From Sphaeroforma arctica JP610 (taxonomy: Eukaryota): a stretch of DNA of 41,264 bases. Where the stretch lies: assembly GCF_001186125.1 (NCBI RefSeq), contig NW_014039749.1, positions 1 to 41,264 of the forward strand, given 5' to 3'. Below are positions 2,974 to 40,666 of the stretch, piece by piece; within the stretch, counting starts at the first letter, position 1, and the number at the start of each line of letters is the position of its first letter. The translations under genes and the position numbers were made by a program. The notes under the pieces are model-generated. The model was not told the DNA's origin, searched no databases, and worked only from the letters and a program-made list of their open reading frames with translations.

Positions 2974-5900
2974 GTACGTACGGTGAGAAGTTCTTGTAGG
3001 GATCAATGTGGCTTAGCGAGTAACATGCGTCAAGTTGCTCTTACTATGGGCTATTCTACTTACTACTCATGTACAGTGTAAATTGGGACATCGTAGTATC
3101 CCCCCCGAATTACCTGGCGATGTTCAGCTGCAGTTGTGTTTTGCTTGTGGTCAGTAGTCCGTATTTAGCTATAATATTTCTGTGACTTGTCAGTATTTTG
3201 TGCGTGTGAGAGTGTCCAATTTACAAGGCTATGGTCAGAGAGTTCATTTCCGGGTCGGTTGGCGATGTGGACTAAAACCTGTATAATCATTTTTGTGTTT
3301 CGGGTCCGAGTAAGCAGGCACGCGTGTATTGCATAGACTCACTTTATCACAGGCCTAATTCGTATTCCAAACGTGTATCTGTCTCGGTTGGCTGATATCA
3401 AGCGTTTCAAGCTATCGTACATACGGGCCTATAGTGGCTATGGGGAGACCTTATGAGTTAGATAAAAATTGAGTACATAAAAGTATATGGAGTGTATTGG
3501 AGATGCTATTGAACGCACGTGTGCCGGAAAGTAAGGTCATGCACGCTCGACCAGCAACTTCCGCACACATACCAATACGCGAATGGGCGGTGCTACCGAC
3601 AGCAATCACATGCATCAATACTTCGAACATGTTTAGTATCGTTGGCAATCCAATCCGTGAAACCCAAATGAGAAATACGAGAAGATGAGTACACAGTATA
3701 ATGGACATATGGTTCTCCACACACTCTGCATAGACGAGCTTGCGGACATACTAGATATGAGAGAAAGAGTACGTGCGGAGAGCGAATCAAGTGACGCTGA
3801 CTGGGTGAAGCTAGATGAGGAGATGAATGTGCCGACGATAGGAAATGGCAAAAAGGACAGGAAAAGCCTGTATGTACTGAAGTTATGCCCGTTTGTGAAG
3901 GTCGCATGCTTTTCTATGAATACATACTCTTCCGTAAAAGCCTATGGTACGAGCAATCTACTCAGTACTGTATAAGTCCTGCTTTGCGATCTGCGTGTTT
4001 GTTATTTTCTGAATACACAGATCAGAACCGGGCGCAAATGGGGATATACAAAGCCTGCATGCTTACCTTAAGAATATATATGCATTTTGAGGCGCATGCG
4101 TGTTAGTTTAAGTCGACAGACACAAGTTTCATCATTTTCTACGTTTTGATATACAACAGTACCGTCAGACAGATTAGTTCGGAGGTCCTGGGTAACGCTG
4201 TCGCCATTGGACCAGTTGAAAGGTAAGTATCCCCCTTTTTTTCGCACAGCACTTTCAATGGACTTATCAGTGGAAACAAAAAAAGGAGGGTTTCTGCTAT
4301 ATTCGCTCTTGCACAGACAGTCATTGAATACTTTTGAGTGCTTATATGTGTTCTACCAAGCTTCGTTTTAGCCATCGTGCACTCCAAATTCAATCGGAAA
4401 ACGTGCGAGGGAAACAGATCCTTCCAACAGGGTGCGTTGACTTGCCGAAACATCCCTCTAGGTGTCTTGGAAATAATTATGATTATAATCTTATCCGCAT
4501 ACGCGCACAGCTTTGGCGAAACCTTGCCCAAACGGCAGAGCAGTCTCGCTAGATATCTCAGCAGGGAGCACGAGCTGGAAGTCGGCGCAGCAGGCAAGCG
4601 AATATCGCTTGCATCACAAGTTTCAAACGATAGCGCAACCGATTGGCGGCGAAAAACCAAGGACCAGGTGTGTGGCAGATGTGTAGTATTCACCTGTTTT
4701 ACGAATTGAACTATGTTATTGTTGGATGGGATGGAGTATGGGTCTCTGGGTGTATGATCACCATTGTTGGAACACTGGAGCGTCTCTTATCCTTCTTGTT
4801 CTCCTTGCAGCTCCGTCGTGCCAACAGCGAAGTGGTCAAAGCCAGCAAAGGGCTGGGGAGCCGCCAACGGAGTGACACAACGAACGCTTCAAGTACATAT
4901 GACCAGATTGGCAGTGGTAGGAAGCAGTCAGTACCGTATGTCAAACAACAGTCATTCACACACAAACCGGCCACAACAGGTGCAGCATCTGGGTTGCACC
5001 GCACAAGCACACAGATGGCAGCCTCTGATTCCACAATGTCTGCTATGGATGCTGAGGCGAGGAAGCTCAGTAATCGTACCTTTGGCCAGCGTATCGGAGG
5101 CTCATTCAGGTGAGCCTTTTTTTGCAAGTGTATGGCTTCTAAATTGGCAGTGTTCTGAGCGTATACAGTAATACCAACGTCAATACAAAATGTAAACCTT
5201 CATATCTTAGTTTCCAAGTGTTTGCCAGGCCTCTTTAGTGGGCCATTAGGTACTGTTGTTGTATTGGACTTTTATTGCTTTGGCATACAACTACGTTCGT
5301 AGCATATATCACCGGATGTGGCCAATTATTCAGCAAACGTCAAGTGTATAAGACTGCTTTCATCGAAGTGTGTAGGAATATTCAATTTGAATTTTTAACC
5401 CCCAGTCTTAACAGAATTCAAAAGTCGGATCCAGCTATTGATAAGGAATTGCCAACTGGAGAGTTCACAGTACCGCGAACACGGAATATGTCACTAAACA
5501 TGGAGAGGACAGGGCAGGAGAACGATCTGAATATATCGGATGAAGCCATCCTCACAAATCCTGCGAGTATACTAAAACCAGTGGGAAACAGAGTCAGAAC
5601 CGATTCTTTATCTACCAAGAATCGCCAGACATCGTAAGCGTGCTTGTGTTGGATCTGGGACATTTCAAATGTGGTTTGTCGTGATGTATGGTGCGTGTAC
5701 TGGCTGCGAATATGTACAGGGGGATCGAAACAAATGATATTGTTTCTTCGGTGAGTAGGTCTTTGGAGCCAGTGCTATATGTGGTAGATTTGGAAACGCT
5801 TTATTTGCCCGTTGCAATAGCAGTGCTGGATTCAATTCACCATGTCAGCAGTTGCAACCGAAGCATACAATACTGACCGTTAAATCCCATTGATATATAT

Positions 5901-8900: not shown

Positions 8901-11900
8901 CGTCATCATCAGTAGATAATAATTCTCCATTCGATAAAGGCGATGGTGAATCACAGGATTCTGACATGCCATGCAATGATTGGACTTCAGTGAGTGTCTA
9001 TAGCTAACTAAACTCATACAAATATTTGATTGCTGCGCGCTGTCACCTCCTTCCCGAGAACAGCAACAAATGCACCACCACCACCACCACCGCCACCGCC
9101 GCCACCAAGTAAGTCAGGCGTTTTGACTTTATACTATATAATAACATGACTTCGTCGTCTATAACAATAGGGCGAAGCTATGTCTTTGTAACATGGATTT
9201 ATGGCGCGTGACTGTCATTGTCATTCTAAACAGCTCTTACTACTGAGCTGTCGATTGCCTCTCCAGCCCTTCCGTATGTACAAATATGAAGTAACCTTAT
9301 TTATACTCGGATATTTTCTAGATTGGTTGGACGTCCAATGTGCTTATGGCGTTGGTACCGGTATATATGAATCATTACCTACGGAAACTTTGCATACGAC
9401 TCAAAAACAGAGTGACGCCAAATGGAGATTTATTCACCATTGCAGAGCGTCTATATATGTAGTACTATATTGAGTTTCGGCTCATTGTAGCCCTCATTGT
9501 GCTTTCTGCTACAGCTTCCAACGCACCACCACCCCCACCCCCCCCTCCGATGTCCAACGCACCGCCGCCACCACCCCCACCACCAGGTATGGGATACCCT
9601 TCTGTGAGTTACGGTCAGTAGTTCCCGTGTAACTTCCTACCTAGCGTCGTTTGATCGCATCCATTCCTTGTTGACTTCGTTTCGCGCGTTTTAATTGATA
9701 TATGTGCTATGAGGACGACAGTTTACAATTGACCTCGTCATTTCGCAGTAGATGTCTATTGTGCGTGGTCTCTGATCGTTCCAAATCATGGTCCTGATGC
9801 ATACGTACTCAGCGTAATCGCTTTCACTTTCGCCCGCCTGCCCGCTTTAGCATCAAATGCACCGCCACCACCACCACCACCACCGGCGTCGAGTGCTCCA
9901 CCACCACCACCACCGGCGTCGAGTGCTCCACCACCACCACCACCGGCGTCGAGTGCTCCACCACCACCACCACCGTCACCACCGGCGTCGAGTGCTCCAC
10001 CACCACCACCACCACCACCACCACCACCACCCCACCCCCATCAGGTGAGAAGCCAGTTTGTACCTATATGCTTGTGTTTGTGGGTATCACTTTGTATTTG
10101 GATGTGTCTTTGTATGTATACATCAATGTATTTTTGTATGTGCAGTTTTTTTTGGCAAGACTTTCATCTAACTCAAATCTTTGTCTGGCCTTATGGCCGG
10201 CGGAGCTCCACTACCACCGCCTCCGCTTTCATCAGTATTCGTTGCGGACGTTATGTGCATATTCCAATGCATACTCTCTTTGAAGGTTGCAGGGAATATT
10301 GTGCAGGCTTCGAATGAATGGTCTTCTTCATTTCTATTCACTTGACACCACATGTTATCCTAGTTCGTACTAGCCTACTTGCGGATATACGATATCCCAG
10401 AAGCATTGCGCCTTTTCTGAGCTTTACGCAATTGCTTTAAACATCCGTACAGGAGTAGCACAGCCACCACCGCCACCGCCGCCACCACCAGCTTCTGGTA
10501 TGCAACGGGTTTAAGTGTACAGCTGAATCTCGATGTATAAATCCATGAGGGGTTGATCTATGCCTGAACTTATGTTTCTACTTGAGGCGTGTAATGGTGG
10601 GTGGTACATTTGTTTGTATCTGCTTATAAGTTCGGATTCTGGTTGGGGATACTCCTTACATCCCGGTAATGCCAAGCGTAAAAGCTTCCTGAAAATGATT
10701 TCGAACATCCATGGCTAAGGCGATGCTAAGTTGAATCAGCGTAATTTGTCTATCGATATCATAAGCTCTTCGTGCCTTTAATTATCTAATTAATTTAGGT
10801 AATAATATGCACTGAGACTGAAAGACTTAAAACTTTCTTCATTTCTTCCCATATTTCATTCTCGTAGGCGGTCCTCCACCCCCACCCCCACCACCCCCAC
10901 CCTCAGGTATGCTTACTTAATCTATTGCTTGCAACTATCGCTCGTATACATCCCTTTACTCATCAACCTGTTATTTCTGTTGTGACTACATATAAGTGAA
11001 CCTGCATAATATATGTATCTCGCAAACAGTGGTTGGCATTGCATTCGCATGCAGCTAGTGAGCTACTGCGGAGGAGAAGTGCGCCACAGGCTCTGTGTGG
11101 CGTGTCTCCACATTTCGATGTGGGTACTTCCTGTTGTAATGCCACTCCGCTGAGTTTTTATCTTCACAATTTGACATTTACAACTGTGCAGGAGGAGCAC
11201 CACCACCACCACCACCACCGCCGCCACCACAACCCTCCGGTAAGTCAGGGTAGCATTTGACAAACACACGAATAAATGTACACATGGTATCAGATGAATG
11301 TACACATAATCTCAGCTTATATCAGTTAGGTTTCCTAAGTGAAGTGTAAGCAATTCATTGTTGTGGACCTGCTGGCTAGACATAATGTAGCACCAAAGTT
11401 GTACCTTTAAAACACCACGCACGAGGTGGCGCTATTGCTGCTAGAATGCATTACAGCCAAACCCGAGTTTAGGTAAGTTATACGAGTGTGCTTACTAGAT
11501 CGTACCACTAACAAACACGCCACTAACAAAAACAGGAGGAGGTCCACCACCACCACCGCCGCCGCCACCACCACCACCACCGGGTAAGTAACATTCAGTC
11601 AAGAATTTGGTCCCATAATCTACAGATTTGATGTATATTCGCAAGAATTGGCTAGCACGCCGCACAGAATACGTCGAACGACTTCGTATGTGCCTTTAAA
11701 ACAACTCAATGATATGCAATTGGAATCACGCACGAGAATCGCTCACGTCGCGTATACTTTTATTCTTGTATGCAGGAGGAGGAGCCCCAGCGCCACCACC
11801 ACCACCGCCACCACCAGGTATTTTATGTTTTGATACGGTTTTGACTTTACTCCGGCGGGTTATATATAATAGCTACTTACCATTCACGCGTTTGTGTATA

Positions 11901-14900
11901 TCCGACCAAACGTATTGGTTTTCTTGGAAAACTCTATGTATTGCTGGAGTTGGTCTACCTTCTCTCCCACTACCACCATGTACGCACAAGTTGCCAAACA
12001 ATTCCATAGTCGCACATCAGCTTTACTGTTATAAGGTATCCGCAGAAGCTACCATCATTCACGTGTAAGTATTCACGGCACGACACACATATCATGACTC
12101 ATTTTGCACACACATCGCGTTCGTCGCTACACACAGGCGGAGGTCCACCGCCCCCACCCCCACCACCAGGTACGTGGGAATGAATTCATATACAATATGC
12201 GCCTCCTTGCTTCGGCGCCTTCAAGGCATTGCTCAAGCCTGTTCTCAGTAGTGCACATGCCTGCGTAGTCTGACGGAACTGCGCTTCCTTTTAGTGACAA
12301 CCACCTGTATGTTTTTTATTCCTACCCAGGAGGAGGCCCACCACCGCCACCACCGCCTCCAGGTAAATATTGTTTAGTCAACGAACTAGTCCCATCCGCA
12401 GGGTTCACCACGGTGTTGTATCCGTACAGCTGTTCATCTATGTGTCTAGCTAGAAACAGTGTCGTACCTGATTATCGCTTTGTCATGCGAGTTTCATACA
12501 ATGTTTCAATCGCTAGCGTGACTATCAACACGGTAAACATTCAGAACAATATGTGTATGCCTTCAGTAGACAATTATGCGTATTCCTCGAAAGGTACATA
12601 CCAATGCATGATTCTTATAGTTCACTGTCATGTTTCTGTTCCATACAGGAGGCGGCCCACCGCCACCACCACCACCGCCAGGAGGAGGACCTCCGCCTCC
12701 ACCCCCACCCCCAGGTATGAATGTGTCAGTCATATTCATCATATGCACAACAATTCCTGCACATATACCGGTTTTATATTTAAAAATATATAGGTATGAG
12801 TGATGTATGGCTACTCTCCCGGGTGCATCATACGCACGAAGGGCTCGACATGTTGCCACATGATATTGTCTTTAATATATTTCTATATGGCCAGCTACAT
12901 GAATATGAACTTTTGCATATTCCGAATAAGATCGTTACGGGTTTTGCACGCATGCTTTCGACAACGCATACGCCGCTGCCTTCACGGAACATATACAAGC
13001 GCATGAACCAAATAATCTCTATTGTGATACACTTCCCTGTTCCACTGGTAGGACAATTGTGCAACCTAGCCAGGTTGAGCTGCAAGATAAGTGCCTTACT
13101 TTTGCCAACGGCGTACTACTCTCTATTTACGTGGACTCATGCATCGATGTATATATCTTTTTTGGTTCCGAGACTCAAAAGTTAGTGTGAGGAGAGTTTG
13201 CCAAATTTCCAGGAAGCAAGAGATATCTCGAGAAACTTGTATTAATCATATCTTTGGTCTTGATTGATGCTCTTCAGGTGTCGGACCCCCACCGCCCCCC
13301 GGGGCGCCAGCCGCGCCGGCCGCGCCGGTTGTGCGTAAGTACTGTAATCGACCTGTTTGAATCATATGGGAGAGTTGTATGTGGGTGTAGAGTCTGCTCT
13401 CCAGTTCGTTGTCGGTCGTGCATGTGGTTGTTTTGATGGTTGTGGATGTGGTTGTGATTCCTACCCCAAAGTAGCTGGCGTGTATCTGCTGTCACAGCAC
13501 TGAAGGTGTGTCGTCACACCAACGGAAAGTGCTGTACTGTTTTTGACTTTCAAGTTGTGAATCAATTCATGGTGGATTTCGGTTTCTACAAATTGATATT
13601 GCAAATTTGTGTTATGATTAGATTCTATCTAGTCACGTTCACGGCTTTATAATCAGATAAAAAGAGGTACATGACTGCTTGCACGTATGGGGTATATCGC
13701 TTGCGCAGGCGTTGTCCTCGACTCGAGGACACGTGATGTAGAAGTGGCTTTTACCTAATTGCTAATTATTTGTCCTAATTATTTTTAGCCCTGAGACCAA
13801 AGATTGTACCAAAGAAGAAAATGAGAAGTCTGTTTTGGAAAAAGGTGGAGATGAACAAGCTTTCGCAAGACAAGTAAGTGATGTCTAGCGCAATGAGAGG
13901 CATCCAACCAGTCACGAAGTGAGCTCAAATTGCAATTGTGCACAAGTTGGCGGGTTATTCTTTGTTCTTAAGGTCAAGACCCGGTGCAGAATCATGACGG
14001 TTTGTCGTATACTCGCACCGTCGTACAAACGTATCCTTATCGTGTTCTGTCGCATTGTCGTATTGTTGTTTTGTTGGGTCGTCTTCCTTCTAGGCTGCCC
14101 TGCTTTCATACGGGTGTGAAGCCAGAGCCCCTTCTGCGCATCTCCTGCCATTACAGCCTACCTCTGGAGGCGTGTTCCTACTGGAACCATCTGAGATCAA
14201 ACCAGTCTCTCCTGCCCGGGTTGATAGAGTATATTTTCATCGTACTGCCGTGAAATTTGTTATAGCCGTGGTAGTTTTCACCATCTCAAATTCAAAATCG
14301 TATACATATCGACCGCAGAGACAATGTGTGGAAGCATGTGGAGGACATTCCTATCGGAAAGATTGAAGACGAGCTACTGAAGCTCTTTGCACAAGCAGCG
14401 CCGGTGAAGAAGGAACCGGTTAGTGCAATTGGGTGTTATGAAGTGTGGACTAAAATGTTGATAATAGTGATACAGTATTTGCATATAAGTAATCTTATAT
14501 GTTGAGAATAGCAAGACATATATATATTTCAGACACTTTTAGGTGTATATCGACATGTTTGGGCCAGCATCACCGTATATGTCATAAATCACCAACGAGA
14601 GATGCTATTGATACAAAATTATAGCAACATCGTACGTGTATATCGGATGCTGATGGGTGTCTTTGTCACCATAGTGAGACTAACAACACGGTATATGCAT
14701 ATCAGATACCTATTGTTGTATGGTTGATAGTAGCAGCGGGGTGCGTGCCTTCAAGGCACTGGTAAGTGTAGATCGTTATGTTGGTGCAAACAGCACGTTA
14801 CAGGCAGATCCGACATTATTAAGTGTAAATTCATATGTTGACGCTAGCAAATTGGCATGTGAATATCGGACGCTAGTTAGTTGTTATCTTGAGGACATTG

Positions 14901-17900
14901 CTTATACGACACGAACGAAACAGAGACTGTGGAGGTATATGAACAGGACACGATCAGCTATACCGTCTATGTATATCCGATACTGGGGAGTGTGTACATC
15001 AGCAACGTTTACTACACTGATGAGCGTGTGTATCGTAGTCATAGTACTCATATACGTGCCCCGGTCACATATTCTCGTGCAGAAAGCCGTGGAGGAAAAG
15101 CCAAAAGTGGCTCAAATATTAGATTCCAAGCGATCACAAGCCGTGGGCATTGTGATAAATAGTCTCCAGCGCAAAGGATTGGGTATCGATGAGGTGAAGA
15201 AAGCCATTCTCGAAGTAGATTCAGAAAAATTAGGGAACGATAATGTGCAACAAATAGCCTCCGTACTGGGAAAGCCGGAAGAATTGGCACAAATTAGGAG
15301 TCATGTGGGATCAAGCGATACACCTTTGGACCGGCCTGAACAGTACGCTTCGTGTAACTGTCGTTGTGTTAAAATATACATCTGAAGACGAAACAGGACA
15401 TTTTTTTGTGCTATTCTTTTGATTGTATGTGTTTGTACAATCATAAGTCTAGAAATGTGATTCGCAGAACGGGGTCAAATATACGTTTCGGAGTGCAAGT
15501 ATATAATTTACTGGGTGTGCATATCCACGATTTCTTGCTTGCGTCTTCACAGATACTGGTAGCAATAATTTGCATGTCATCATACCGGTAGTACGGCCAA
15601 ATATGCCCTTACTATAGGTACTTGAAAGGAATACGTTGGCAATAATCCATACTGCTGTACTCTTCTCTCGGTGTACTACATTGAGTGTGTCTGTACACAT
15701 GCAAGGCCGTGTGTGTGTGGTTGCAAGAAGTGCTGTGCGAGAGCGATGACACGTGCACCGTACTGTGCGCATGGGCACACTTGTTCTATGGGTTTACCCC
15801 TTGTTGTACGCAAATATTTATTTGTACACAAATATACTTCTGCATTGAGCTATGTAGACGTGTACAAATGGATTACAGGGTGCAGCGACAGTGTATTTGC
15901 TTGTTGTGGGTAATTTTACCTGTGACTGTGTTCACTCTCTGTCGTCTAGAAACAGTGCCATCACTATATGTGCCATGTGTCGTATGTGACGAGTAGAGCA
16001 TGTCTCATGCAATTAACTAGTTGTTTTATGACTGTTGTGTGCTGAAGATATGATTTTTCTTCTTCTATCAGGTTCCTACTGACTCTAGATGAAATACCGG
16101 CGCTAGAGGCATGGATGGAGTGCTGGAGATTCAAAAGTATATGGCAAGAGGAGCTCGATGAATGCGAGGGCAAGATCGACTCCGTCACCAAAGCAATACA
16201 CGTATGTCGATACGCATCTGTACCTAAAACAACGTATCCAAAGTACATGCCAACACAGGCGCCACACACGCTGGCTGTGAAACACGACAGAGATACTAAG
16301 CAATCGCTGAAACGGCATGGTGGGGGGGGGGGGGGGGGTTTTCATGTTGATATCAACACTGCGTGTTTGCATTCCTCCTTCTATTAAGTACATTACAAAG
16401 TATATTCAAATCCATACCCTCAGGCTATACGAGACAATGAGGCTATCAAAGAAGTGCTGGCTTGGGCCTTATGTATAGGCAACTACATGAATGGTGGCAC
16501 CAACAGAGGTCAGGCAGACGGATTTGCCATTGAGCTTATCCCAAAACTGGGAGATGTCAAAGTATGTCAATAGGGCCTGTTATCAGACTAGACGACCGAA
16601 ATGGTACTTCAAACTTTATTTTGTGAGCGTATGTGCGTTCCAACATGTGTTTTCATGCATTTATATCTCTGACACTAATAGTTGCTCTCGGTTATATTTA
16701 TTACTCCCATAGTACGCAGCCTTTATCTAGGGCATGTTAACTCGGCTCTCCATGGAGTGGTACCAATATCATGTACATGTTTATGACAGATAGTAATGTC
16801 TTCAATATGCACCTCCCTGAACTTCCCACACAAATTCGTATCGTCTGTACGGAACATTTGGTTACCAGTCAGCAGATCAGAAGACAACCCTGATCAGTTA
16901 CGTAATGTCAAAGTTATACTACAAGGGTATCGACATCAACGAGATCATCGATGCCATTGTCGCGAAGGGCCAGGCAGAGCCTCCGAAAATTCGTAAGTGA
17001 GAATACTGTACCATATTTGACCAAACAAGGACCTATTCCGGCTTTCTGTAGTGTCCAGAGTGTATCTTCTGGCCATACAGAGATACAAACTTGAACAGTA
17101 GTGAGACGCCGGTGCAAGGTTTGTTCACGGCTACTAGAGGGTACTTGTACGAATCGTGAAGAAGTGCTTCGATGTATATGGTCTATGTTGAAGTGTTCAA
17201 CGTTAAGGTAGCGCTGTCTTAAATTATAGTCCCAGAGATACGTGAACAGGGGCCTCTGCATGCCCACACTGACTCGGTTAAAGTATGTAGCACAGCAATA
17301 ATGGGAACACAAACATTCAGCGATCCTTGCACTGACCACGCTATAACAAGTTCGAGGTAGCACTGTTATGGCTAGAGGAAGACGCAGTGCCCGCTGTGGA
17401 AGTAAAGGCCATGTACTCTTGCAGATCTTAAACGAGCATTTGATTATCTGCTGCGTTGATATCACTATTGCAATCTACGGGTTATATGTGGAAGGATTCA
17501 CCCACACATGAGATGTATGACGAAATTGATCTGACGTTCACTTATTGATATGTCCTGTCGCTGAGCTGACTTTGACATTTTCCACTTCTCTCGCTCTACC
17601 ACCTGCTACTACAGCTTTCCCGTTACCGGCTGTGTCGATGTGTGAGAAAGGCGCCAGAATCAGTTTTGAAGACGTAACGAGCAATGTGGCCCAATTAGAC
17701 AAGCTTTTGAAAAGTATGATTTTCTTTTTTACTGAGCTCACAACTTTTCTCTGTTGGGAACCATCACTCTACCATAGGCGTCGATTCCGACCGTTGAATT
17801 GAAGACATGTTCGCCCTGGCAGGCTGTATAGTTTCTTGTGCTACCTCTGAACATGTTACACGCAATGGTCTTTAGTTAATTAGCATATCTTGAGGACGTA

Positions 17901-21086: not shown

Positions 21087-24000
21087 ATGCTAGTTAGGAG
21101 CTATGGACGCATTCGCATGAACTATGTGCCATCATATATAAGATGCGGTATGGGAAGCCCAGGCGGACGAATGATCTCGTCGACAGGTCAAAGCTCGACG
21201 GAGACGCACACAGAATTTGAACAGCCGCGCTCGATCACCCAGCGACGAGACGAAAGCACACAGTACACCTATACTCCTGGAGAAGGCCAGGTATGTTCTG
21301 CCTGAAGTTGACTTCAATGAAAATCATAATTTTATCAGTCATAGGGTAGCTGTCAAGCTCATGGTATATCACGCATGAAGTCGGGCCTATCATTCAATGA
21401 TTGACCAGAATACTATGCATTCAGTGTAACTGTTTTTGAGCAGTGTGCTTGTATATATCTATGTTTTTGTTTATATGTATATTTCGTATATAAGAGATAC
21501 CAGTCTTTAGCGCTACGTGCGCACTACAGAATTTTACGCGTGACAAGTTTAATTCTCGGAACTGAAATCTCTGTCAACACTTCTATGTTCACAATGAAAT
21601 AAGTATTCGAAGTACGATTGTAAGATTACGTATTCACAGTCATGTAAAAGCCACAAGGTCTGAATGAAACTTAAGTTGTTTTCGAATGCCTGACTAATTC
21701 TGTTTAATCTCCAAGTATTCGGGCAATGTGAGTGTACAGGTTATAGGTTCTAGCGTCTGACTAATATTCTTCTATGTTCTGTCTATCAGAGCAAGGTGAA
21801 TGTAAAGCATCTCGGCTCCGCTGGAATTCAAGGCGGGGTGACTGCAATTAGGCAATTTCTTCAGACCACTTTTCTGCCAGCGGGATACCCGGAGAGTCTT
21901 GGTCCAGGGTATCTCACGTTCGTTAAATATCAGGTACGTTGCTTCATGCCTAGTATAGTTTTCTTGAGATACGATACTGGCGTTAAATATCAGATACGTT
22001 GCTTAATATTCTTCTCTGCTTGAAGGCGAAGTCTTAAATTCTGGATACCAGGTGGTAGACCTTCGGCTTATGTACTTTGACATTTGCACGATGATACTTT
22101 GTACTATTTAAAGCCATCCAGTTGTTCGGCATTTGATACTGATACTGGTGCGCGTCTATTACAAATATAGTTTCCATTAACACGTTGATTGAAAATATTT
22201 GGCAACCATGTTATTGCCTACTTATGTGTTTGTGCGCTATGCAGCCTTGATTGTGAACGGCATGCTTGCATCTCGGGTTCCTTTTCGCTTCGTAGCACTC
22301 GTATTGCCCGGGTTCCATGCTGATATTCTACAGTACATCCGCGTATGATATCACTCGAGTTGCATTGGCGTGTATACGTCTGAATTCCACTTATCACCCG
22401 CACATCGACGTAACTTCCAGGTTATTATTCCCTCATCAGTCTTTGCATCACGTAGCCTCGAGTGTAAACGGCGTGCTTGCGTCTACGTTTCTTTTGTACG
22501 GCGTAGGCCTAGGCGAGAGCGCAGCCCCTGTTGCCGGTGCTGTCAATTGGGTCCTAAAAGATGGGTTGGGCCAGATAGGAACTCTGATGTTTGGCAAATT
22601 GATTGGTATGAACTATGCGTCTTGTTCATAGCGCATACTCTCCCACTCTCCACTGCTATACTATTGGAAATTAACCGTAAATCGTGATAATGACATGCAT
22701 TCAGTGGATTTGCCGGCCACTCATGCTCCCTACCCACATCATAACCATTGGCAATTGATCGTCTTTTAACAACTCGTGTATTACTGTATGGATTTTTTTT
22801 GGCAGCTCACAGATTTGATCTGAACGCGAAGACTTGGTATCTGTCTGCATCAGTGATGCTGAACGTAGGTATGTTTGGCCCGTTTCGATGTAAAATACCT
22901 ACCGCTTCTATTTTTCAAGCATCAAAGATATCGGTTAGGAAACATTTGGTCATTCAAAAAGCGTGTAGTCGCTCATACAGATCGATTTTCTCTCTTGCAA
23001 TGGATCAAATATTGAGTGGCTGTACTTTTACTAAACTCCGCTGTTTCGTACTCTATACTTATTTAGGCGTGTATCTCGAGTTGTCAACATTCATGGCTCC
23101 CCACCACTTTCTGGTATTGGCTTCGCTCGCTAATGGAATAAAGGTACGAGGAGCTGCCATATCTTGATCACTGGGTTAAGTATCGTGAGCACGGTTTCTC
23201 CTTATGGTGCAAGCACAATATATGCTACGTTCGCAATCCACAGCGCGACAGTCGTTTTGCGACGTGATCGGGGTACTGCACGTTAGACACTTGAATATCC
23301 ACTTTCGATAGGAATGGAGTGATGTTGAGATGAATCTTGAGTGGAGGGTACCATGGTACCTATAGTACGTATCTATATTCATAGGGTTTAAACAGGAATG
23401 GGTGGAATGCTTCATGTACTATAGCAATATTGATAACGGATATTTGCGCATTTCCCGAATTGAACCACGCCTGTTTAATTTATACCCGATTTACATCCCA
23501 ACTAGCCTAGTAGTGATTACGCCGTATATTTTTGAATCGGCCTGTCACAATTTGTATCGATTTGCTAGGGGCTTGCTTGGATGGCGGGTGGTTCGACGCG
23601 CTCCGCCTTCAATGTAAGCTTTGCCAGGGCCAACAACATTGCAGACATCACTGCGAAGGCTACTGCTCAAACGATCACCGCGTCTCTCTTCGGTAATATT
23701 CTACAAAGCTATCTATAGTGTTCTGGTTTGTGCAGCGGTACACCGTACTTTTCTCCGTGTAGATTCAAGGGCCATGGTTACCCGACGTAGGACCACACAG
23801 TACGGCTATCTCCTTGTGCTCAAACAATTGATACTGCTTAACATCGCATCTGAAGTCTCACTATCTTTTATCAACTCAGGAAACCTTATCGGCGTGTACC
23901 TCTGTAGTCAAATCGGTCAATCGCTCCAGTATGCTGTGGCGGCATGTGCGATCACATCTTGCGTGCATCTGGGTGCGGGTATGTCTTTACATCCGAAGCT

Positions 24001-25852
24001 ATCAATGTTTTTGCGTTGGCGATAAACTTACAACCTGCATACTCTCTTCGAAAGCACAAGTGTATCTTATTTTGTATGAGTGTGTGAATATACTGCCGGA
24101 TTATTGTGTAATTCGTACACGTGTTTTAACTGTAAAGTATCCTTTTCTTAGCTAGTCGTTCGTAATATGCGCACAGGTTGCCGTTGCCGTTAGCACAACA
24201 GTGCCACAGCTACGGCACTGTGACCGCTGGGTATTGAACATGGGGCGAATGGGTTAGAGATAGTTTCTGATGATGTGATACTAAATACCAATACATAGTG
24301 AGATCCTTGTTTTTGTGTTGGGACCCCCTCTGGGGCCTAGTATGGCTCAACAACGATTTTGTAATGACTCGGGTTAGGTATACTCGTAACATATATTTTG
24401 ATTCTTGTACCAACATACACAGCTTATTGGTGCGTGCGAAACATTCCGCTGAGCACCTTAAACCCCAGCCGGTTGCAGCTTCTTACAGATAGATTCCTGG
24501 ACTATCGCCGCTCACGTATGACTAGTGCACCTGAAAACCACGATAAAGGTACCCGCGGGACAACTCAATTGGCTCTAATCTATACTGTTGTCACAAACTA
24601 CTTTTTGTTCCGCGTGAAGGGTTTCAATCAATGTGCCTTCGCATAGTTCTCGTTCATGAACTGCTTTTCTGCTTTCTATATTAGAATGGGATCAATGTAT
24701 GCTCAACAACAACGGATGCGACCAAATCTTGAAAATCGAGTAGTTGCAATAGTCTGACTGTATCTTTTTTTTATGGAATCAATACAATGTTGTCTGTCCT
24801 TTCCGCAGCTCTGCCAAACCCAACCGACTTGGCTTTAGAGGACCCAGCCGTCCATTTTCCGCGTGTGCAGGTACAATTGAGAATGAGTTCATTTTTCCTT
24901 TTAATTCAGACTAGTTTATCACTGTTTATGACGGCGATGCAATCGTGGTGGATCACTCAGAAATTTGCGATGATGAGATTTCCAGAATATTGCTATAATT
25001 TTAAATTGTTTGAACCCTACCTAAGTTGTCAATGAATGTTCCACTGTAGCGCGACCAACGATTCTTGCCCGCCATCTCCGTTGGTGTGGATGTGATAGAG
25101 CTCTGTGGAGGCTCATCGAAGAAATTAGACGAACTACTCCAAATATATAAGGATTTGCCTTATATTGCCTCTGTAGATGATGCTGACGGGTCTGTTATGC
25201 TGGTGTTCAAGGAGGACGCCACTCCCCATCAGTGTCTTCGAGGTATATTTGGCATGTTGAAGTTCGAATGTCTTTTGAGGGTCAATTTAGCTGAACATGC
25301 ATCGATGGTCGGCAAAGGGTTTGATACTTGAAGGGGTTATAAGTCCGCACGCAGATTTTCGGTTTATAATCCACTACAAATCAAAAATATTAAGCAGTTC
25401 ACTAATAGATCATCTCTGCTGCTCAGGGTACCTGAATGCATGCATATTAAGAGACAGCTCTCGACAATGCCAACGAATAGATCGAACACCTGGTATGTTA
25501 CTTTTGTGCCTGTAGCGGTGCATGTCGTGTTGGAATGCGTGTGCGATTTTGTTGTTGCAACTATACGGCTCGGCTGATCTCTTTTTGTCAATTTTTTCGA
25601 ATACCTTCGCTTGCATTGTTGTGATTAGACGTATCTATTGTGCTGAAATAGTGCACTTCACTTCACCTCACACACCATGAATGCTCTTTCTTAAATCGAA
25701 ACAAATACGGAGCAGCCAGCAGAGTACAACTACTCGAAGCGATAGAGGAAAGCACTGCTGCTCAGGCCGAATATGTTGCACAGCTTGAAAGTACTGGATG
25801 GCATTATAAGCGCTTACAAATAGAGATAAATTCGAATAGAGCTATGTGGTAA
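21087..25852 (+). CDS. RUSF1: RUS1 / DUF647 (root UVB sensitive, C16orf58-like) family membrane protein, 12 exons, 486 aa
   Basis: Exons 21087-21290, 21790-21933, 22440-22605, 22806-22868, 23067-23143, 23569-23692, 23880-23978, 24423-24548, 24809-24870, 25050-25242, 25427-25492, 25716-25852, with all phases consistent (1461 nt). Family motifs: FLPAGYPES, WVLKDGLGQIG, RFDLNAKTW, NNIADITAK, TLNPSRL and the C-terminal LESTGW...RAMW*. The symbol is family-level. Confidence 0.88.
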
Positions 25853-27221: not shown

Positions 27222-28124
27222 CTATAATTGGCCTACGAATCGTTCCGTGGGCTTTTTTCTTTTGGTGAATTTCGTTAATGAAGTAAAGATTCGCGCAACG
27301 CGGGCTGACCTACGTGGCGATTGGTTGATATACTCACAATCAACTAAATATCTCAGGTTATACCACTTCAAGTGTACGTGTTGCAATAAGTAGCGTATAG
27401 CTCCGTGCACTAGCTGGGATACCAGCATCGTGGGTCCAAGGGTGATTTCAACCACTTTTGATCGCCTTGTCTCTTTTTCAACTAAACTTGCATACAACTG
27501 TGGGGTTGTACTGATAGTGGACTGGTTACCTATTCGAACTATACAGGTTTCTGGATTAAGGCCTGCCTCTTCTCCCACACTGCCCCTTTCAATATATGAT
27601 ATGTTGCCATCACCTGTAAATGTAACTCCGATTTGATCGCTGAAACGTCTGTGGGCTTTGGAGACATGTTTCGGAACGTGAATAACATATTTTGAGAATG
27701 CACTCTGATCCACCAATTCTATGGTAAGCACAGATGAAGTGTCCAGCTGCTCATTCGCGTCTTGAATAACATCGGATACTTTATAAGCCAATGCTTCCAG
27801 AGACAACGCGTTGATCGAGGTCAGCTCGTCACCGAATCTGAGTCCTGCTCTAAAGGCCGCAGTGAATGTGTTGTCTGCGTTGTATCTTTCCACATAAGCT
27901 ATATAAATGGTATTCCCCACAAAAATAAGAAATATACCAAATGCCTGCCCGGCCTCTTTCTTCACCCTAACTTCTCGTCTTCTGGTGGAGAAAAATTCTT
28001 CCCGCCAGCTTGGGCCTTTCTCCCTATGAATTGAGGTATCAATACCGAAAGTATCAGCTATCACTTGTTGACTGTTTGTCCCTGTGTTTTTGGTGTTTAA
28101 GTATGCAAAACTTTGAGACTCTTG
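27222..28124 (-). CDS. Syntenin-like tandem-PDZ protein, single long coding exon, 5' end unresolved
   Basis: REVRVKKEAGQAFGIFL...AGLRFGDELTSIN (PDZ1, with the syntenin-type GLRFGD) followed by QIGVTFTGDGNISYIERGSVGEEAGL...IVRIGNQ (PDZ2). The frame is open to a stop at 28146-28148 with no upstream ATG. There is a likely acceptor ACCAACAG| at 28125/28124. Confidence 0.75.
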   Translation of the reverse strand, partial: QESQSFAYLNTKNTGTNSQQVIADTFGIDTSIHREKGPSWREEFFSTRRREVRVKKEAGQAFGIFLIFVGNTIYIAYVERYNADNTFTAAFRAGLRFGDELTSINALSLEALAYKVSDVIQDANEQLDTSSVLTIELVDQSAFSKYVIHVPKHVSKAHRRFSDQIGVTFTGDGNISYIERGSVGEEAGLNPETCIVRIGNQSTISTTPQLYASLVEKETRRSKVVEITLGPTMLVSQLVHGAIRYLLQHVHLKWYNLRYLVDCEYINQSPRRSARVARIFTSLTKFTKRKKPTERFVGQL

Positions 28125-28149
28125 CTGTTGGTATTTTATATTGCCTCAC

Positions 28150-33281: not shown

Positions 33282-33720
33282 ACTTGCTTGCTGGCGCGTG
33301 TGAGATAGGATTGCTCACCATCCATCGTCCGATGAATCTACCTTCACTGCCGCCCTTCGCTTATCCACCTTCAGAATTAAAAGAAAATGTTTTATATACG
33401 TGTCAGTACCGTGAGAAAAGAGGTTTTATTCGCCGATTGCGTACTGGCGAATACGGCGACCAAACGCTCACCCTGCTTCATCACATGAATGCACCTTCAC
33501 TGTCATCCTTTGACAATTATTCTTATAATACATCTTTAGTATTAGAATGAAGTTTACACATGGACAGAACCGCGAGCAAACACTGCATGAATTTTTAATT
33601 TTATTTGGCTGCTTGCTTACTGGCGTAAGGGATGATTTTGCTAATCAGACCAGCCATCATCCGATGATTCCTGTATTGTATCAAATTTATACCTATCAGA
33701 ACCGCGAGCACACACTACAA
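33282..33720 (-). repeat. Three diverged tandem copies of the terminal acidic exon region
   Basis: Shared blocks include CAG(A/T)ACCG(C/T)GAG at ~33403, ~33565 and ~33697, CCATCRTCCGATGA at ~33322 and ~33654, and ACCTTCACTG at ~33340 and ~33493. Confidence 0.8.
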
Positions 33721-36700
33721 TATCATTGACAGCAAACAACAACAGAAGTACACGGCCACATCCGCATGCACGGAAAAACATTACAAATTTGCGCTCCAAG
33801 TGAAATGAACACGCAGCGCAAGTGCAAAGCGACAATAATTTGCGCAGCAAATTATAATGTGGCTACGTTATAGGGTAGTACTTGGCTGGATGACGAAGAA
33901 TAACCTGTAGTTGAAAAGCAAGAGGGGGAGGGGAGTTCGATCTCCATCCGATTGCGTGAACAAGAACACACAAGCACTACACTCACCATCTTGTTAATTG
34001 TGTCGTAGATGCTATTCGGGGGTATAGGCGATTTTGGTGCCTCCGACGGGAGGGGGCTGGTGGGCTTCAGCTGTTTACCTGTGCGTGCGCATGAAAGCTG
34101 ATTGCTTAGAACACTGTCAGGGTGTACAATATAATTGTATGTTCGAATAAATGTCGAAGTGTGATCTGAGACGAAATCATATGACTCTCGACGTTGATAG
34201 TTCCAACAGTAGTAGGGACCTATTTTCTTCTTCTTTAAAAAACGCATTAAAACCTATTCCGTAAGTAACCATTCCGACCATATCATCGTCTGATCAACAA
34301 TCCCCAGGTCAATCGGTGAGGAGCATACCACTCAACACTCTATCGCTTTGACAAATCCTACATACCCCGCTTGATGTCGTCTAAGAAACTTGATCCGCCT
34401 GCCGCCTTCGTCACGGGTTGGGTGTTCGTAGGCACTTGCTTACCTAACGCTTGTGCAGGTTTAGGCACAGCCGGGCGCGCGAGTTCTTCTGATTTTCTTG
34501 ACCTCGTAGTGACTGTAGAGACGCACGTGGAAACGCGCATAGCCAGAGCGGATGGCCATTTGGGTAATAAGTACATCAGCGTCAATACTCATAGGTAGAT
34601 GCGGCAACAGGAGATGGGTTCTTTGAATTATACAGGCAGGTGAGAATATTCTAGTCTACATATATAGCATACACATAATTTTAAGCACACGCGAAAGTAC
34701 GAGCATATATGGATACACGCACATACAGTTTGTGTTTACCTTGAGGTGAGGCTTGTGGGAAATTATACCTATCGGCGCGCTATGGGTGGGGACAGCTCAA
34801 AAAGATGGGAAGTTGTGAGTGCGAGTGCTCACAACTTTAGACAAAACTTTCATGCATACACAAAGATAGGTTCATACGCACACATGGGAATAAGTATCAC
34901 AGACACAGACAGATAAATTGCATATACCTATCGGCGCGCTATGGGTGGGGACAGCTCAAAAAGATGGGAAGTTGTGAGTGCGAGAGCACACAACTTTAGA
35001 CAAAACTTTCATGCATACTCATAGATAAGTTCATACGCACACATGGGAATTAGTATCACAGACACAGACAGATACATTCCATACATGTTCAAATTAGAAT
35101 CCAGCTTCTATGAATACCGGTGTGGCTGCTGCTATGAAAGTAAGTCCTCGGACAGTGTCAGTGCGAGTGCGCCCATCTGCAGACACGCATATAAGGAAGT
35201 ACATGTATACAGCCACACACACACACATATCAAGCCTGTACAGATACACACATACGTATATTCCATACACTTCTTCGACAATATACTAGTGGAGTACCAT
35301 ACCTGTGGGGGCGGCCACGGGAGGAGGCAATTCATCGGGGATGGACGGCGCGGGGGGAAGCACGTCCATATCATCCTCGTCGTCGGAAAGAGGGGGTGGC
35401 GGAGGAAGGTCGTCTAGGCTGATAGGTTCTTCCGCTGTATTGTGTAGGGGGTTCACATGTTTTGGATCCTCGAGCGTAGACATGACGCCGAAGCTGAAGA
35501 ACAGGCACACGGCTGTGCACAAGATGCCGTACTTGATGCCCTGTAATGCTTCCTCTGTTGGGAGCATATAAACAAAGTTTGTGTGAGAGTATTATTCGAC
35601 TGTTGATCGGTACGAGTGAATCTGATATAGTAAATATATACGTGCACATACGTGCGTCTTTGTGAGAAATATTGTGTGTATGGTTTCTATGGCAAGAAGT
35701 GACATACATACACGAATCTGCACCACAAGGTGATTGTGATAGGGGCTTGTTGTGCCAACAAACCACTTCAGCCAATATTGCCAGGACATATATTCTCTAT
35801 AGGTCATCGACCCATTAAAGGTAATACAGACATGCATGTAAGTATACATAAATACAAACGTAGGGCAAATTCATAGCTTCTTATACTGAACAGCTTGCAT
35901 CTATTCACATTCATACCTTTGTCATGGAAGAAGTGCTGGGTAGACTTGAGCACTCTTAGCACCATCGCCTGGTAGACACCGCAAAAGCCGAGGTAGATGA
36001 AGCCCATCAGCCGAGAGTCGTAGCACCAGGCCAACGTGCCCAGGAAGAACATACATGCGGTGGTGACTGTGTACATAAACCAGTGACCTGTGACGGAGTG
36101 TAGGGTTTAAGCGTGGGTCCTCGGTCGCTCGAGGATGTAGGAAAAGTGGACGTACGGAACCGAACGATCGTTATAATCGAGCAACAAAGGTTGAATAAGG
36201 ATAGGCATCAAAAGCCTATATCAATCGTGAATAGGAATAGGCATCAGAAGTCTATATCAATTAAATAGAGATATTCATCTTGAGTAACCCGAAACAGTTT
36301 CGTTGGAAGTGAAGTTCTAATATTCGACGATGCAAAGGTTGCTTACAACATGCTCGACAGTCGAAGAATTGTCCAAATGGCGTAGTATTTAGTGTATACA
36401 GAACATCAAACCAAATTGAGAACGTCTGATTTCTTTTGACTAACCAAACTTGTATACATTTCATACGGTGAAGTTCCTGATTGAATTTCAATAAGCAAAC
36501 AGGTAAGCCGAAAAACACGCACATGCACATGTGTATATGTATATATGTATATATATATATATATATAATATATTATATATACTATTTGTCTCTCTCTCGC
36601 ATATATATATATATATATACTATTTGTCTCTCTCTCGCGCTATATATATATTATTATATATATATATGTCTTGTCTCTCTCTCGCGCTATAAGTATANNN

Positions 36701-37148
36701 NNNNNNNNNNNNNNNNNNNNNNNNNNNNNNNNNNNNNNNNNNNNNNNNNNNNNNNNNNNNNNNNNNNNNNNNNNNNNNNNNNNNNNNNNNNNNNNNNNNN
36801 NNNNNNNNNNNNNNNNNNNNNNNNNNNNNNNNNNNNNNNNNNNNNNNNNNNNNNNNNNNNNNNNNNNNNNNNNNNNNNNNNNNNNNNNNNNNNNNNNNNN
36901 NNNNNNNNNNNNNNNNNNNNNNNNNNNNNNNNNNNNNNNNNNNNNNNNNNNNNNNNNNNNNNNNNNNNNNNNNNNNNNNNNNNNNNNNNNNNNNNNNNNN
37001 NNNNNNNNNNNNNNNNNNNNNNNNNNNNNNNNNNNNNNNNNNNNNNNNNNNNNNNNNNNNNNNNNNNNNNNNNNNNNNNNNNNNNNNNNNNNNNNNNNNN
37101 NNNNNNNNNNNNNNNNNNNNNNNNNNNNNNNNNNNNNNTATATATTAG

Positions 37149-37182
<34 letters not shown>

Positions 37183-37183
37183 G

Positions 37184-37214
<31 letters not shown>

Positions 37215-40200
37215 ATGCGTGTTTTAAAATGGTTAAAATAGTTAAGCGAACAACAAAGGTGTCAATGTCCGTCCGCGGGCACATGCAAAGGTAACGACCA
37301 CATGAATTGAGTAATATACAAAGTCAGATCAACGACCGTTCAGAGACTTACCTGAAATTTCCATGCATTGGTCATACTGATGGGATTCTATGAAGACAAA
37401 GTACACGAAGAAGGACAGGGCCGTCCAGATGATACCGTATACAGATCCCGTGCGAACCTATAATTAACAAGGGCCATATGATGCCAGATCCTCAAAACAT
37501 TTTCATACAGGTACCATGACACCGAAATTTGATGTCTCATATGAACCTATGGACAACGACGGGATCATGTGACGCTTGCTATCTATCTAAGATATACGTT
37601 CTTACATATATCGTCACAACAAGTATCGATATAGAATGTTTTCATGAGAGAGCTGAGAAAATACATCGAGGATGACAATTGCGTAACACACTCTGATATT
37701 TCCGCCAATTTTACTTTTAATACACAAAAAAAGAACAAGTGTGTCAACAAGAGAATGTGTCGGATCCGAGTGATAGCCCTATCAGATTCAAACCTCCCAC
37801 ACTCAGCAAATATGATTCGATACTCTGTACATAGAGCTAATCGGACGCGATAAACGTTTCATAAAATTGGAATCCGAACCTTTACACCATGCAGTAAAGA
37901 TTCCCTCTTACTTGCATACAGTAAAGATCCGCTCTTACTTGCATATCGCAGCAAAGGCAGGAAATATCTGATGCATATCTGATACAGTCTCTTGCGCTAT
38001 TTGATAGTAATAGTACAACGATCTACCAACGTTCCAGGATAGATCTTGAGATACACTAGACACAAAGATGAAGACCATACCAAATCAATGAACCCGGCCT
38101 GTGCAATGCCACGATCAATTGCTAGCGGAGTGGAAATCCCGAACGACTTCGCGTACAATGCTGACTGAATGGATGACCGATTCCACGATAATTTCAATGC
38201 GAGAAAAATTAGTAAATTCATTTATTCAGTGCTACATCGGATCTTTCAAAATTCGAAACATTTTGAATAGACTCATTGTATACTGTTGGATTTGTGATCT
38301 GTGATTTGTATACAATGGCGCAGAATGCGATAATCATCATCGCTACAAGCGGTCGGTGCACGTGGTTGTAGACAGTGCGTCACAGTCACAAACAACTTCA
38401 GTACCTTCGAAGTAATGGGCACCAAAACATAACACATACGGCGACGTTATAAAAGGTACATTTCCGGAGTCACGATACACCGGTATTATATCCAGAAGAT
38501 TCTTTGCCCATGGTTCCATTTATAAAACACGCACTAATTCCTGTACGTTCGTATACCACTCTTGTATCAAAGTGCTTACCAAGATGGCGAAGAAAGGAAG
38601 CGGTGCACATGCAACCCCAAGACCATTGATGAACACCCTGCAGTCGATAAAACAAGATCCACAGGATGAATTATGAATATAGTTGTACCAAAACACATTT
38701 ATGCGACGAGGGGGTTAAGGGCAGTAGCCGATGGAAGGGTGATATTGATCTGACATAGATAACATTGAAAATAATTTTCATAATTAAATTTTTATTATTA
38801 TTCAAGGACAATCTGAAGCTAACAATATACGTACTGAAATCATTAGCATCACATCAACCCCTCAGGGAGGTCAATGCGTATCGCATAGAAGAAATACATG
38901 CTATTCCTATTCATGCTCATGCCGCACAGGCATGCTCGCAATATAATTCCCCATGATACGAAAGTGTGCATTGGCAAATTGACTACAGAGCCCGACACGT
39001 GACAACAAACCAAGACGGGGAAGGACAGCTATGACACCGAGACAGTTGTGGGCCTGTAGATTGTTTGCAGGTCATATGAACATAGACGTCACAGAACACA
39101 AAGACGTATTTGACTCAGGTAGACGTCGAAATCACATTCAACGGAAGAAGGTACATACATCTAGCGTATTCCGCTATTCGTCAACATTCACCGTATTCGT
39201 ACACGTGCATATATCAAATGATAATCTCTCTATTATGCTCACAGGAATAGACAGCTATTCCGATTCATCCTAACAAACCTGTTTACGATGGGTCTTAGCA
39301 TTCGATCGATGTCCTGTCTGGCCTTCTTGGAGAATTCGGCTGCCAACTGCTTCGAAGTGATTCCGGCTGCCCTGAGTGCTTGGTCAGCTAGTAAGAAACA
39401 CGCAGGAATTAAAAATAAGATAATACAACCACTTCTTTATCATGCATGTGCTCGAGCATAGGTGTGGTTCAGTCCTACAATACAGCGTGAGCATACATAT
39501 AATGCATACACACCACAACAGTGGTATGGGGCACAAATACACACTCCACTGTCGCCATGATTATGTTACCGATATCCAAGTCCAAAAATGGAGCAGACAG
39601 AAATGTATTAGTACAGTTATACTTACTCGAGCAACAAAAGAGTACATACACCAAGCGCAGGGTACAGCTCATACGGCGAACAGCACAAGACGCGGCAAAT
39701 GCATGGTAACGTATAGAAAGCAGACACGACTCGGAACAAACACATCACCAACAAGGAAGCGCAAGCGTTTGCTACGTGGATATACCCAATCACTTCTAGT
39801 AGATCATATGTACTGGAACCATACCTTCGATCAAATTGCCCATCTTCATTTCTACCTCACATATTCTCCTTCCTTCAGCTTTGAGCGCCTGAATTTCGGG
39901 GTCAGTGTTCTGTGCACCACAAGCGGATTCGCAGAATCTATTAGCGTTGCAACACGAACGGAGACGCTCGAATCGCTCTAACGAACCGAGCTGATATTAC
40001 CTGCAGTTGTATCTGATCTCCTATCAATGTGAAATATTAGGTGAAGATACACATAGACGTTTACATACTATAAGTGCACTATGAATCTTTATCAACATAT
40101 ACTAATAAGTATAAGTACATAAACATATATATACTGTGCACAATTTTTTTCTTTCTACTTTATGGCATGGAATACGCTGGGATAGCGAAGAACAATAAGA

Positions 40201-40666
40201 AACAGGCGACCCCAACAACTGTTCAACTTCTCACCGGGAATAATATTCAACAACATCCGGTAAACGACTCTAGTTAGAAAACTAGTTCAAGTATCTATAA
40301 TCAACTGCAGTGACCATACTGTATTTTGTGATATTGTGTATGTACTTCTGTCATGTGAAAAAAGCACTTATTAAGTCATTATATATCTACCTCTCCCTCG
40401 TGCCAAGCGTAGACAACACGTATGTGCAGTCTCTGCTTCTGCGTAAACCGATCTTCACATGTAATACATCAACAATAATGAATGGGCGCAACGTGAAACG
40501 GCATGATGCACACGCACACATACCTGTAGAAAGTGTGGGAATTCGACATAAACAGAAAGCACAGCTCCAATGAAGAACAGTACCATCAACACCGACAGAT
40601 GTATTTTAGGAAGATCAAATAGACGTCGACCATTACCAAGTTTCTTCTGGCAGAAATGCACAAAAA
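33315..40666 (-). CDS. Multi-pass membrane protein with a C-terminal Pro-rich region and WH2-C-Acidic (WCA/VCA) module; 5' end lies outside the window; ~470-480 aa visible
   Basis: Phase-consistent minus-strand exons: 40666-40524, 39909-39861, 39387-39279, 38637-38580, 38164-38027 (or alternative donor at 38081), 37457-37352, 36087-35917, 35554-35303, 35176-35118 (or a 14-nt version from 35131), 34779-34740, 34512-34366, 34078-33987. These are followed by either 33368-33315 or 33904-33882 plus 33692-33641. There are 6-7 hydrophobic segments, then DDLPPPPPLSDDEDD, then SSFLDDIKRGKQLKPT...NSIYDTINKM-VDKRRAAVKVDSSDDGW*. Confidence 0.75.
34764..35074. repeat. Recent ~160-bp tandem duplication spanning a minus-strand splice acceptor
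   Basis: TATACCTATCGGCGCGCTATGGGTGGGGACAGCTCAAAAAGATGGGAAGTTGTGAGTGCGAG... occurs at 34764 and 34923 with few differences. Confidence 0.92.
36698..37138. other. Assembly gap (441 N) flanked by TA microsatellite
   Basis: N run inside an intron of the minus-strand gene. The flanking exons join in phase 1 without needing an extra exon. Confidence 0.99.

Follow-up and report, generated by a model that had tools for sequence, protein, structure and literature searches.

The window analysed here is a contig of 41,264 nucleotides from Sphaeroforma arctica JP610 (NW_014039749.1), whose minus strand carries the gene SARC_08706. The exons of this gene are joined in one transcript and one reading frame, encoding a multi-pass membrane domain followed by a tail with a WH2 motif, a central (C) helix and an acidic (A) end (WCA, also termed VCA). 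The product is a candidate for a new subfamily of the WASP family, anchored by a predicted PAP2-like domain and likely to be a class I activator of the Arp2/3 complex. By analogy with known systems, it is probable that the membrane domain anchors the protein in a membrane of the secretory pathway, where the cytosolic tail would load monomeric actin (G-actin) and activate Arp2/3. The WCA motifs, their order and their conservation across the family are established at the level of sequence. An original prediction, made from the DNA alone, had proposed an integral-membrane Arp2/3 activator at this locus; it missed the probable PAP2/FIT-like nature of the membrane domain, with both catalytic-type histidines, and the spread of the family over three supergroups.

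Transcript and tail of SARC_08706

The part of the gene in the window comprises 11 exons, and the exact boundaries of the introns read GT..AG in 10 of 10 cases. Joined, the exons form a single open frame identical to residues 4-435 of an NCBI protein (P0002; source label SARC_08706, partial, Sphaeroforma arctica), and all peptides quoted in the original prediction were recovered in frame on the minus strand. Transcripts were sought in four sequencing runs (X3-X6, from three studies), which were picked by a word share of 0.21-0.27, suggestive of exon-only cover, and aligned to the two clean halves of the gene. The runs were only guessed to be RNA, a point settled by spliced joints across GT-AG introns. 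In all four, one spliced contig of 1445-1577 nt extended over the 11 exons with no mismatches, bearing out the assumption that the membrane and WCA exons belong to one transcript. Nine exon joints were read directly in the contigs, each skipping a GT-AG intron, and the tenth, across an intron with a 441-nt gap of Ns, was read from reciprocal loose ends.

The predicted gene extent (33315 to 40666) was confirmed for all 11 exons but not for the start of the gene, which lies outside the window: the run contigs continue for a further 53-140 nt in the 5' direction, and the 5' exon with the start codon and most of helix 1 is off the contig. The visible 30 nt of this sequence, read by hand, amount to ten mostly hydrophobic in-frame codons, which align (also by hand) to helix 1 of the orthologue P0003 (CFRG8253T1, from a species that we take by its prefix to be Creolimax). 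The protein thus has seven helices, six of them wholly within the window. Hydropathy analysis gave seven hydrophobic segments in P0003 and six in the 5'-truncated P0002, in agreement with the six to seven segments counted originally.

In both P0002 and P0003 the VCA module is C-terminal and follows a proline-rich region, which is the order of class I nucleation-promoting factors (NPFs). The WH2 motif of P0002 agrees with the published pattern at eight of ten positions and has a 4-residue linker (PMC3298513). Its C region shows 5/5 features (I411, I415, V419, KRR and V426) of a pattern of three hydrophobic residues spaced by three, a basic doublet and a further hydrophobic residue (PMC3298513), within a predicted helix of residues 411-429, and Trp435 is the last residue of the protein. 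The complete module proposed originally therefore stood for the C helix, the WH2 motif as a whole and the terminal Trp, but not for the end of WH2, which reads LKPT instead of LK[K/R]x. When a two-sequence profile (P0002 and P0003) was searched against the PDB, the top match was the WH2-C region of N-WASP (E 4.8e-4), gap-free from WH2 to C; a 34-row profile gave N-WASP at E 0.0016 and WAVE1 at E 0.044. Soluble WASP-family head domains (WH1/GBD, WHD, WAHD, WMD, IMD) gave no Pfam match in P0002 or P0003 (E<=10) or in 32 relatives (E<=0.1).

P0003 is 45% identical to P0002 over the whole length, and the identity falls in islands: 150/283 residues in the membrane domain, 12/18 in C (the best conserved part of the tail), 5/9 in A and 6/14 in WH2, as against 9/41 and 3/14 in the flanking linkers. 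In 300 shuffles, the number of tails with a full W-C-A never exceeded one, or two when the acidic end was held fixed. This conservation in islands and the shuffle controls rule out chance as the origin of the tail motifs.

The last intron contains two decayed tandem copies derived from the last exon. In an NCBI variant (P0001), splicing leads to one of them (33600-33671), so that the acidic Trp end is kept and the basic end of the C helix is lost. This alternative exon was covered by no contig of the four runs, contigs being prone to drop rare forms. If the variant is real, it would be a splice switch on activator strength.

Membrane domain and predicted topology

In the membrane domain, Cys67 was found in 30/30 aligned rows, Arg64 in 29/30, Lys60 in 23/29 and Pro129 in 31/31. 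Cys193, Gly198, His199 and Trp200 are invariant (34/34) and Ser197 nearly so (33/34), giving the SGH of a C2 motif. Leu244, Gln248 and His252 are likewise invariant (33/33), Asp253 occurs in 32 of 33 rows, and position 256 is Glu in 31 and Asp in 2 of 33, so that a C3-type histidine is followed four places on by an acid. The C3 motif has the form H-x3-D. SGH lies at the start of a helix, and H-x3-[ED] follows 53 residues later. Upstream of SGH, five of 39 sequences, P0002 not among them, contain a C1 motif (K-x6-RP), which is out of register; no conserved arginine precedes His252, where the invariant Gln248 is found instead.

In an AlphaFold model, the predicted local distance difference test (pLDDT) score was mostly >90 over residues 21-280, and a tail-less relative reached a predicted template modelling (pTM) score of 0.89. 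A structural scan of 48,161 chains returned entries of the PAP2/haloperoxidase superfamily in all of the top 11 rows (Z 8.4 to 5.8). The best match was PgpB (Z 8.4, root-mean-square deviation (rmsd) 3.9, 172 aligned residues), followed by a second PgpB entry (Z 7.8), G6PC1 (7.7), Aur1 (7.4), LpxE (6.8), SMSr (6.8) and LPP1 (6.2), with the first unrelated row at Z 5.7. Since fold matches and conserved motifs agree despite modest scores, the modelled domain is likely PAP2-like and resembles FIT, although it is filed here neither as FIT nor as LPP. The prediction is of a PAP2-like bundle made up of helices 2-7, in which both His199 and His252 look towards the lumen or the outside. No Pfam family exceeded its cut-off in the membrane domains of 34 proteins scanned, and no PAP2 or FIT model was among the matches; an NCBIfam scan of 31 members gave nothing meaningful. 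Pfam matches to DUF2953, Frag1 and 7TMR-DISM, which were short and below cut-off, were dropped.

The probable topology was read from the fold comparison and from features of the loops. FIT2 and the PLPPs have six helices and cytosolic C-termini; should helices 2-7 correspond to those six, the C-terminal tail would be cytosolic and the histidines luminal or outside. The available part of one study describes luminal histidines and cytosolic ends for FIT2 (PMC7659722). This arrangement fits the basic loop 1 (seven K/R in 16 residues of P0003), the two invariant cysteines on the same-side loops 2-3 and 4-5, and the glycosylation sequons in loop 2-3 (10 of 29 rows), and it is consistent with the cytosolic tail expected originally.

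Family members, related systems and coordinates

Relatives were collected by a profile search of 1.84 billion protein representatives (E<=1e-3). A profile search was needed, as a word-indexed protein search yielded just two and four proteins. The family comprised 42 members, two of them the queries' own clusters, and each best stretch included part of the membrane domain. Tails of at least 100 residues were present in 24 members; 12 had short tails without WCA and six were fragments. The short-tailed members indicate that the membrane domain can work alone. Among the long-tailed members, 20 of 24 end in an acidic stretch with Trp or Phe preceded by a C helix. A full W-C-A was counted in 18 of 24 (16 of 22 once the two queries are set aside) at thresholds (C>=4/5, WH2>=7/10) that were chosen after the tails were seen; under an earlier, cruder rule the count was 12 of 24, and the query was not among them.

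Of 40 non-query clusters, 20 were looked up and three had species names. With Sphaeroforma, the named members are from Hondaea fermentalgiana, Mucochytrium quahogii and Protostelium nocturnum, and thus from Opisthokonta (the window), Stramenopiles and Amoebozoa. The fusion, which the original prediction suggested seeking in holozoan proteomes, therefore recurs in three supergroups, and both the orthologue and the wider family preserve its motifs. None of the refuting conditions set out in the original prediction that could be examined was borne out. The Protostelium isoform P0049 has a full tail as judged by eye. Between helix 7 and the proline-rich part of P0049, residues ~308-345 had seemed from recall to resemble the WASP autoinhibitory region, a likeness that phmmer on the PDB did not support. 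In the homologue L001 (= P0013), the membrane domain, two WH2 motifs, C and A lie in one uninterrupted open reading frame (ORF) of 652 residues. Two to three WH2 copies were found in P0007, P0008, P0013 and P0015. Extra modules include an SH3 domain in P0012 (E 5.9e-12), a CCDC53-like segment in P0015 (E 5.1e-12) and a WW domain in P0023, which has no WCA; SH3, CCDC53-like or WW additions to the tail were listed for P0007, P0012, P0015 and P0023. A di-lysine signal for the endoplasmic reticulum (ER) was present in none of 22 members.

A tree was built from 29 rows, with 14 omitted as fragments or suspect calls and WCA labels assigned by hand. Tailed and tail-less members were mixed, with four changes of WCA label and a weak backbone (58/53), so that one gain with losses is indistinguishable from repeated gains; truncated gene calls may also account for tail-less rows. 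Viral contigs yielded no relative, and neither did prokaryote genomes scanned with narrow two-sequence patterns, both weak negatives; the family members found included no named animal or fungal record.

The class I NPFs of the WASP family (WASP/N-WASP, WAVE/SCAR, WASH, WHAMM/JMY, WHIMP, WAWH and WAML) share with P0002 a proline-rich region followed by WH2-C-A and a terminal Trp; P0002 differs in its multi-pass membrane head and its short acidic end. FIT2/FITM2 (yeast Scs3 and Yft2), an ER acyl-CoA diphosphatase, retains the histidines of C2 and C3 but has no C1, as is the case for the P0002 family. The histidine spacing is 53 in P0002 and 59 in FIT2, and the family differs from FIT2 in having one more helix at the N-terminus, a loop 2-3 of 70 residues, the WCA tail and no Pfam FIT match. 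The PAP2/LPT enzymes (PgpB, LpxE, G6PC1, LPP1, SMSr and Aur1), the best fold matches, share SGH and H-x3-D/E with the family, which lacks their in-register C1 K-x6-RP, has Gln for the C3 Arg, and is 7-12% identical to them at rmsd 3.9-8.2. Listeria ActA is a bacterial protein with a single-pass membrane anchor. The accessible part of a review describes ActA as activating Arp2/3 and assembling actin at a surface (PMC10330494). It lacks an enzyme-fold membrane domain. The PLPPR/PRG proteins (PLPPR1-5) are membrane proteins of the PAP2 type that carry long cytosolic tails and remodel actin; according to the accessible portion of PMC9520309, their catalytic residues are substituted and they form filopodia without Arp2/3, whereas the P0002 family has both histidines and its own WCA.

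The coordinates of the features are collected in Table 1. Two further repeats were observed in introns of the gene: a tandem duplication, and a piece that another contig of all four runs matched with six differences and that may be a repeat or a gene fragment. The contig also bears a second actin nucleator, a formin gene, probably by chance.

Table 1. Features of the window, numbered from its first nucleotide.
Feature	Position	Strand	Remarks
SARC_08706, gene body in window	33315-40666	-	11 exons, 10 GT-AG introns; residues 4-435 of P0002
Exons 1-4 in window	40666-40524, 39909-39825, 39387-39279, 38637-38580	-	
Exons 5-8 in window	38164-38081, 37457-37352, 36087-35917, 35554-35303	-	
Exons 9-11 in window	34512-34366, 34078-33987, 33368-33315	-	
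Exon with helices 1 (end) and 2	40524-40666	-	basic loop 1 (likely cytosolic); helix 2 at 40604-40545
Exon with long loop 2-3	39825-39909	-	likely luminal/extracellular; Cys67 (39861-39859), Arg64, Lys60
Exon with second half of loop 2-3	39279-39387	-	
Two exons with helix 3 and loop 3-4	38081-38637	-	38637-38580 and 38164-38081; invariant Pro129
Exon with helix 4	37352-37457	-	helix 4 at 37445-37386; invariant Cys193 (37367-37365); start of SGHW motif
Exon with helices 5 and 6	35917-36087	-	C2-like His199 of SGHW; C3-like [TS]Q-x3-H252-D253
Exon with helix 7	35303-35554	-	Glu256; helix 7 at 35531-35472; proline-rich/acidic region
Proline-rich and acidic region	35420-35307	-	in exon 35303-35554
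WH2 motif, residues 381-394	34059-34387	-	split by 287-nt intron (exons 34512-34366, 34078-33987)
C helix, residues 411-426	33345-34010	-	split by 618-nt intron
Acidic tail	33315-33344	-	terminal Trp435 (33320-33318) and stop codon
Alternative last exon / decayed tandem copy	33600-33671	-	copy of 3' part of last exon and untranslated region; within last intron
Second decayed tandem copy of last exon	33466-33510	-	within last intron
Intronic tandem duplication	34764-35081		159 nt, 95% identical
Intronic piece	40383-40480		98 nt
Formin gene	9733-16384	+	FH2 at 14684-15382 (E 1.4e-12) and 16046-16384; polyproline exons ~9733 to 13490
Root-UVB-sensitive (RUS) family gene	22296-25328	+	UVB_sens_prot, E 7.1e-13
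307-codon frame	27225-28145	-	PDZ matches (E 9.3e-9 and 0.008), probably tandem PDZ
656-codon acidic repetitive frame	1029-2999	+	no Pfam match

Alternative explanations, mechanism and significance

Several observations weigh against a PAP2-anchored Arp2/3 activator and are given here with the alternatives on which they bear, in addition to the choice of motif thresholds, the result of the cruder rule, and the 12 short-tailed members and six fragments described above. The acidic end of P0002 has three D/E in its final 15 residues, the lowest count of 22 members. In the HMMER check envisaged in the original prediction, Pfam WH2 scored 14.8 bits in P0002 against a cut-off of 23.1 (E 0.024); the model was likewise under its cut-off in P0003 (E 0.012), and it matched just four of 32 other members at E<=0.1, none of them above the cut-off. 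The short acidic end, the sub-threshold WH2, the LKPT in place of LKK[TV] and the P0001 variant on record without the basic end of C would suit a tail with affinity for G-actin, and perhaps for Arp2/3, but with little or no activating power; the protein would then serve as a tether at the membrane or dampen other activators by competition. WHIMP, according to the accessible part of the review, is a weak natural activator (PMC10330494), and P0002 itself may be weak, given its short acidic end. As an account of the tail, a tether or damper appears unlikely: C is its best kept part, most relatives have 5-9 acidic residues with a terminal Trp or Phe, and the W-C-A order is maintained over three supergroups. 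Nucleation independent of Arp2/3 through tandem WH2 repeats, as in Spire or Cobl, would be favoured by the two to three WH2 copies of several members and by weak Spire and Cobl rows in both profile searches of the PDB, but P0002 has a single WH2 and C and A follow WH2 in 18 of 24 long tails, which makes this explanation highly improbable.

For the membrane domain, the fold scores are modest, with Z values of at most 8.4 lying in a range common for helical bundles. With the second model, that of a tail-less homologue, the top five rows were of the PAP2 superfamily (Z 7.0-6.1), tied with an unrelated row at 6.1. The original prediction had left the domain to be identified by structure comparison; the structural scan points to PAP2, whereas with Foldseek neither model had a match in the PDB at E<=1e-3, and PgpB ranked 18 and 2. 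C1 and the C3 arginine of canonical LPPs are also absent. The tail could accordingly be read as above but be attached to a seven-helix domain unrelated to PAP2 (a receptor, a channel or a metal binder) from which it receives signals, and the presence of seven helices against six and the lack of Pfam PAP2 or FIT matches in all 34 proteins would agree with this. We regard it as improbable, since the 11 best rows and the five best of the second model all belong to one superfamily, and SGH followed by H-x3-[ED] at 53 residues (59 in FIT2) fits C2 and C3. Charge alone is not decisive on topology, as the stretch of 15 residues that follows helix 7 is close to neutral (2.25 K/R vs 2.04 D/E) and loop 2-3 is net positive. 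This neutrality, the reading of topology without a predictor and the fact that the contigs are assemblies rather than single reads would leave room for an annotation artefact, or for a luminal tail with incidental motifs. Against these stand identical joints in one frame in four runs of three studies, the single-ORF homologue L001 and the shuffle controls, and there is very little chance that either is correct.

In the proposed mechanism of a membrane-anchored activator, WH2 would deliver G-actin, C and A would engage Arp2/3, and the proline-rich part would take profilin-actin or SH3 partners, by analogy with other NPFs, so that branched actin would nucleate at the host membrane without an adaptor. 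Because no GBD or WHD head was found, control would likely be exerted by trafficking, clustering or partners, and an SH3 or WW domain is built into some members. As to the host membrane, the FIT-like lack of C1 would point to the ER and the PLPP/PLPPR precedent to the plasma membrane. The chances that the membrane domain has enzyme activity (phosphoester or diphosphate cleavage) appear about evenly balanced, the remainder falling to lipid binding or a pure anchor role.

A literature search for the combination of membrane domain and WCA found no description, with poor coverage of subscription journals, and the impression in the original prediction that the architecture is unrecognised among described NPFs was upheld. 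To our knowledge, soluble head domains are what defines the eukaryotic class I Arp2/3 activators described so far. In the accessible portions of the two sources, 'transmembrane' had no occurrences in a 2012 family survey (Kollmar 2012, PMC3298513), and neither had 'integral membrane' in a 2023 review (PMC10330494). The accessible survey text treats a VCA with a new N-terminal domain as a new subfamily (PMC3298513), under which rule a VCA with a new N-terminal membrane domain qualifies.

In S. arctica, Arp2/3 is required for the actin nodes that start cellularization, as stated in the available part of PMC6855841. This requirement marks a place to look and is not evidence for SARC_08706. Three gene identifiers for SARC_08706 were absent from the 12 supplementary files of that study, which may use other identifiers, and WASP was mentioned zero times in the accessible main text (PMC6855841). 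More tentatively, and in our judgement with the balance leaning clearly against it, the family could be an ancient overlooked WASP subfamily, possibly as old as the Amorphea/SAR split, in which an active PAP2-type enzyme is wired across the membrane to an Arp2/3 activator, so that branched actin would respond to lipid state or to a luminal signal; it could then supply the Sphaeroforma cellularization nodes. With a multi-pass activator, protein sorting alone would determine where branched actin forms, and a signal could be relayed from one side of the bilayer to the other. The family also defines an uncatalogued, probably PAP2-like membrane family, and SARC_08706 provides a testable candidate activator for Arp2/3-dependent cellularization in a close relative of animals.

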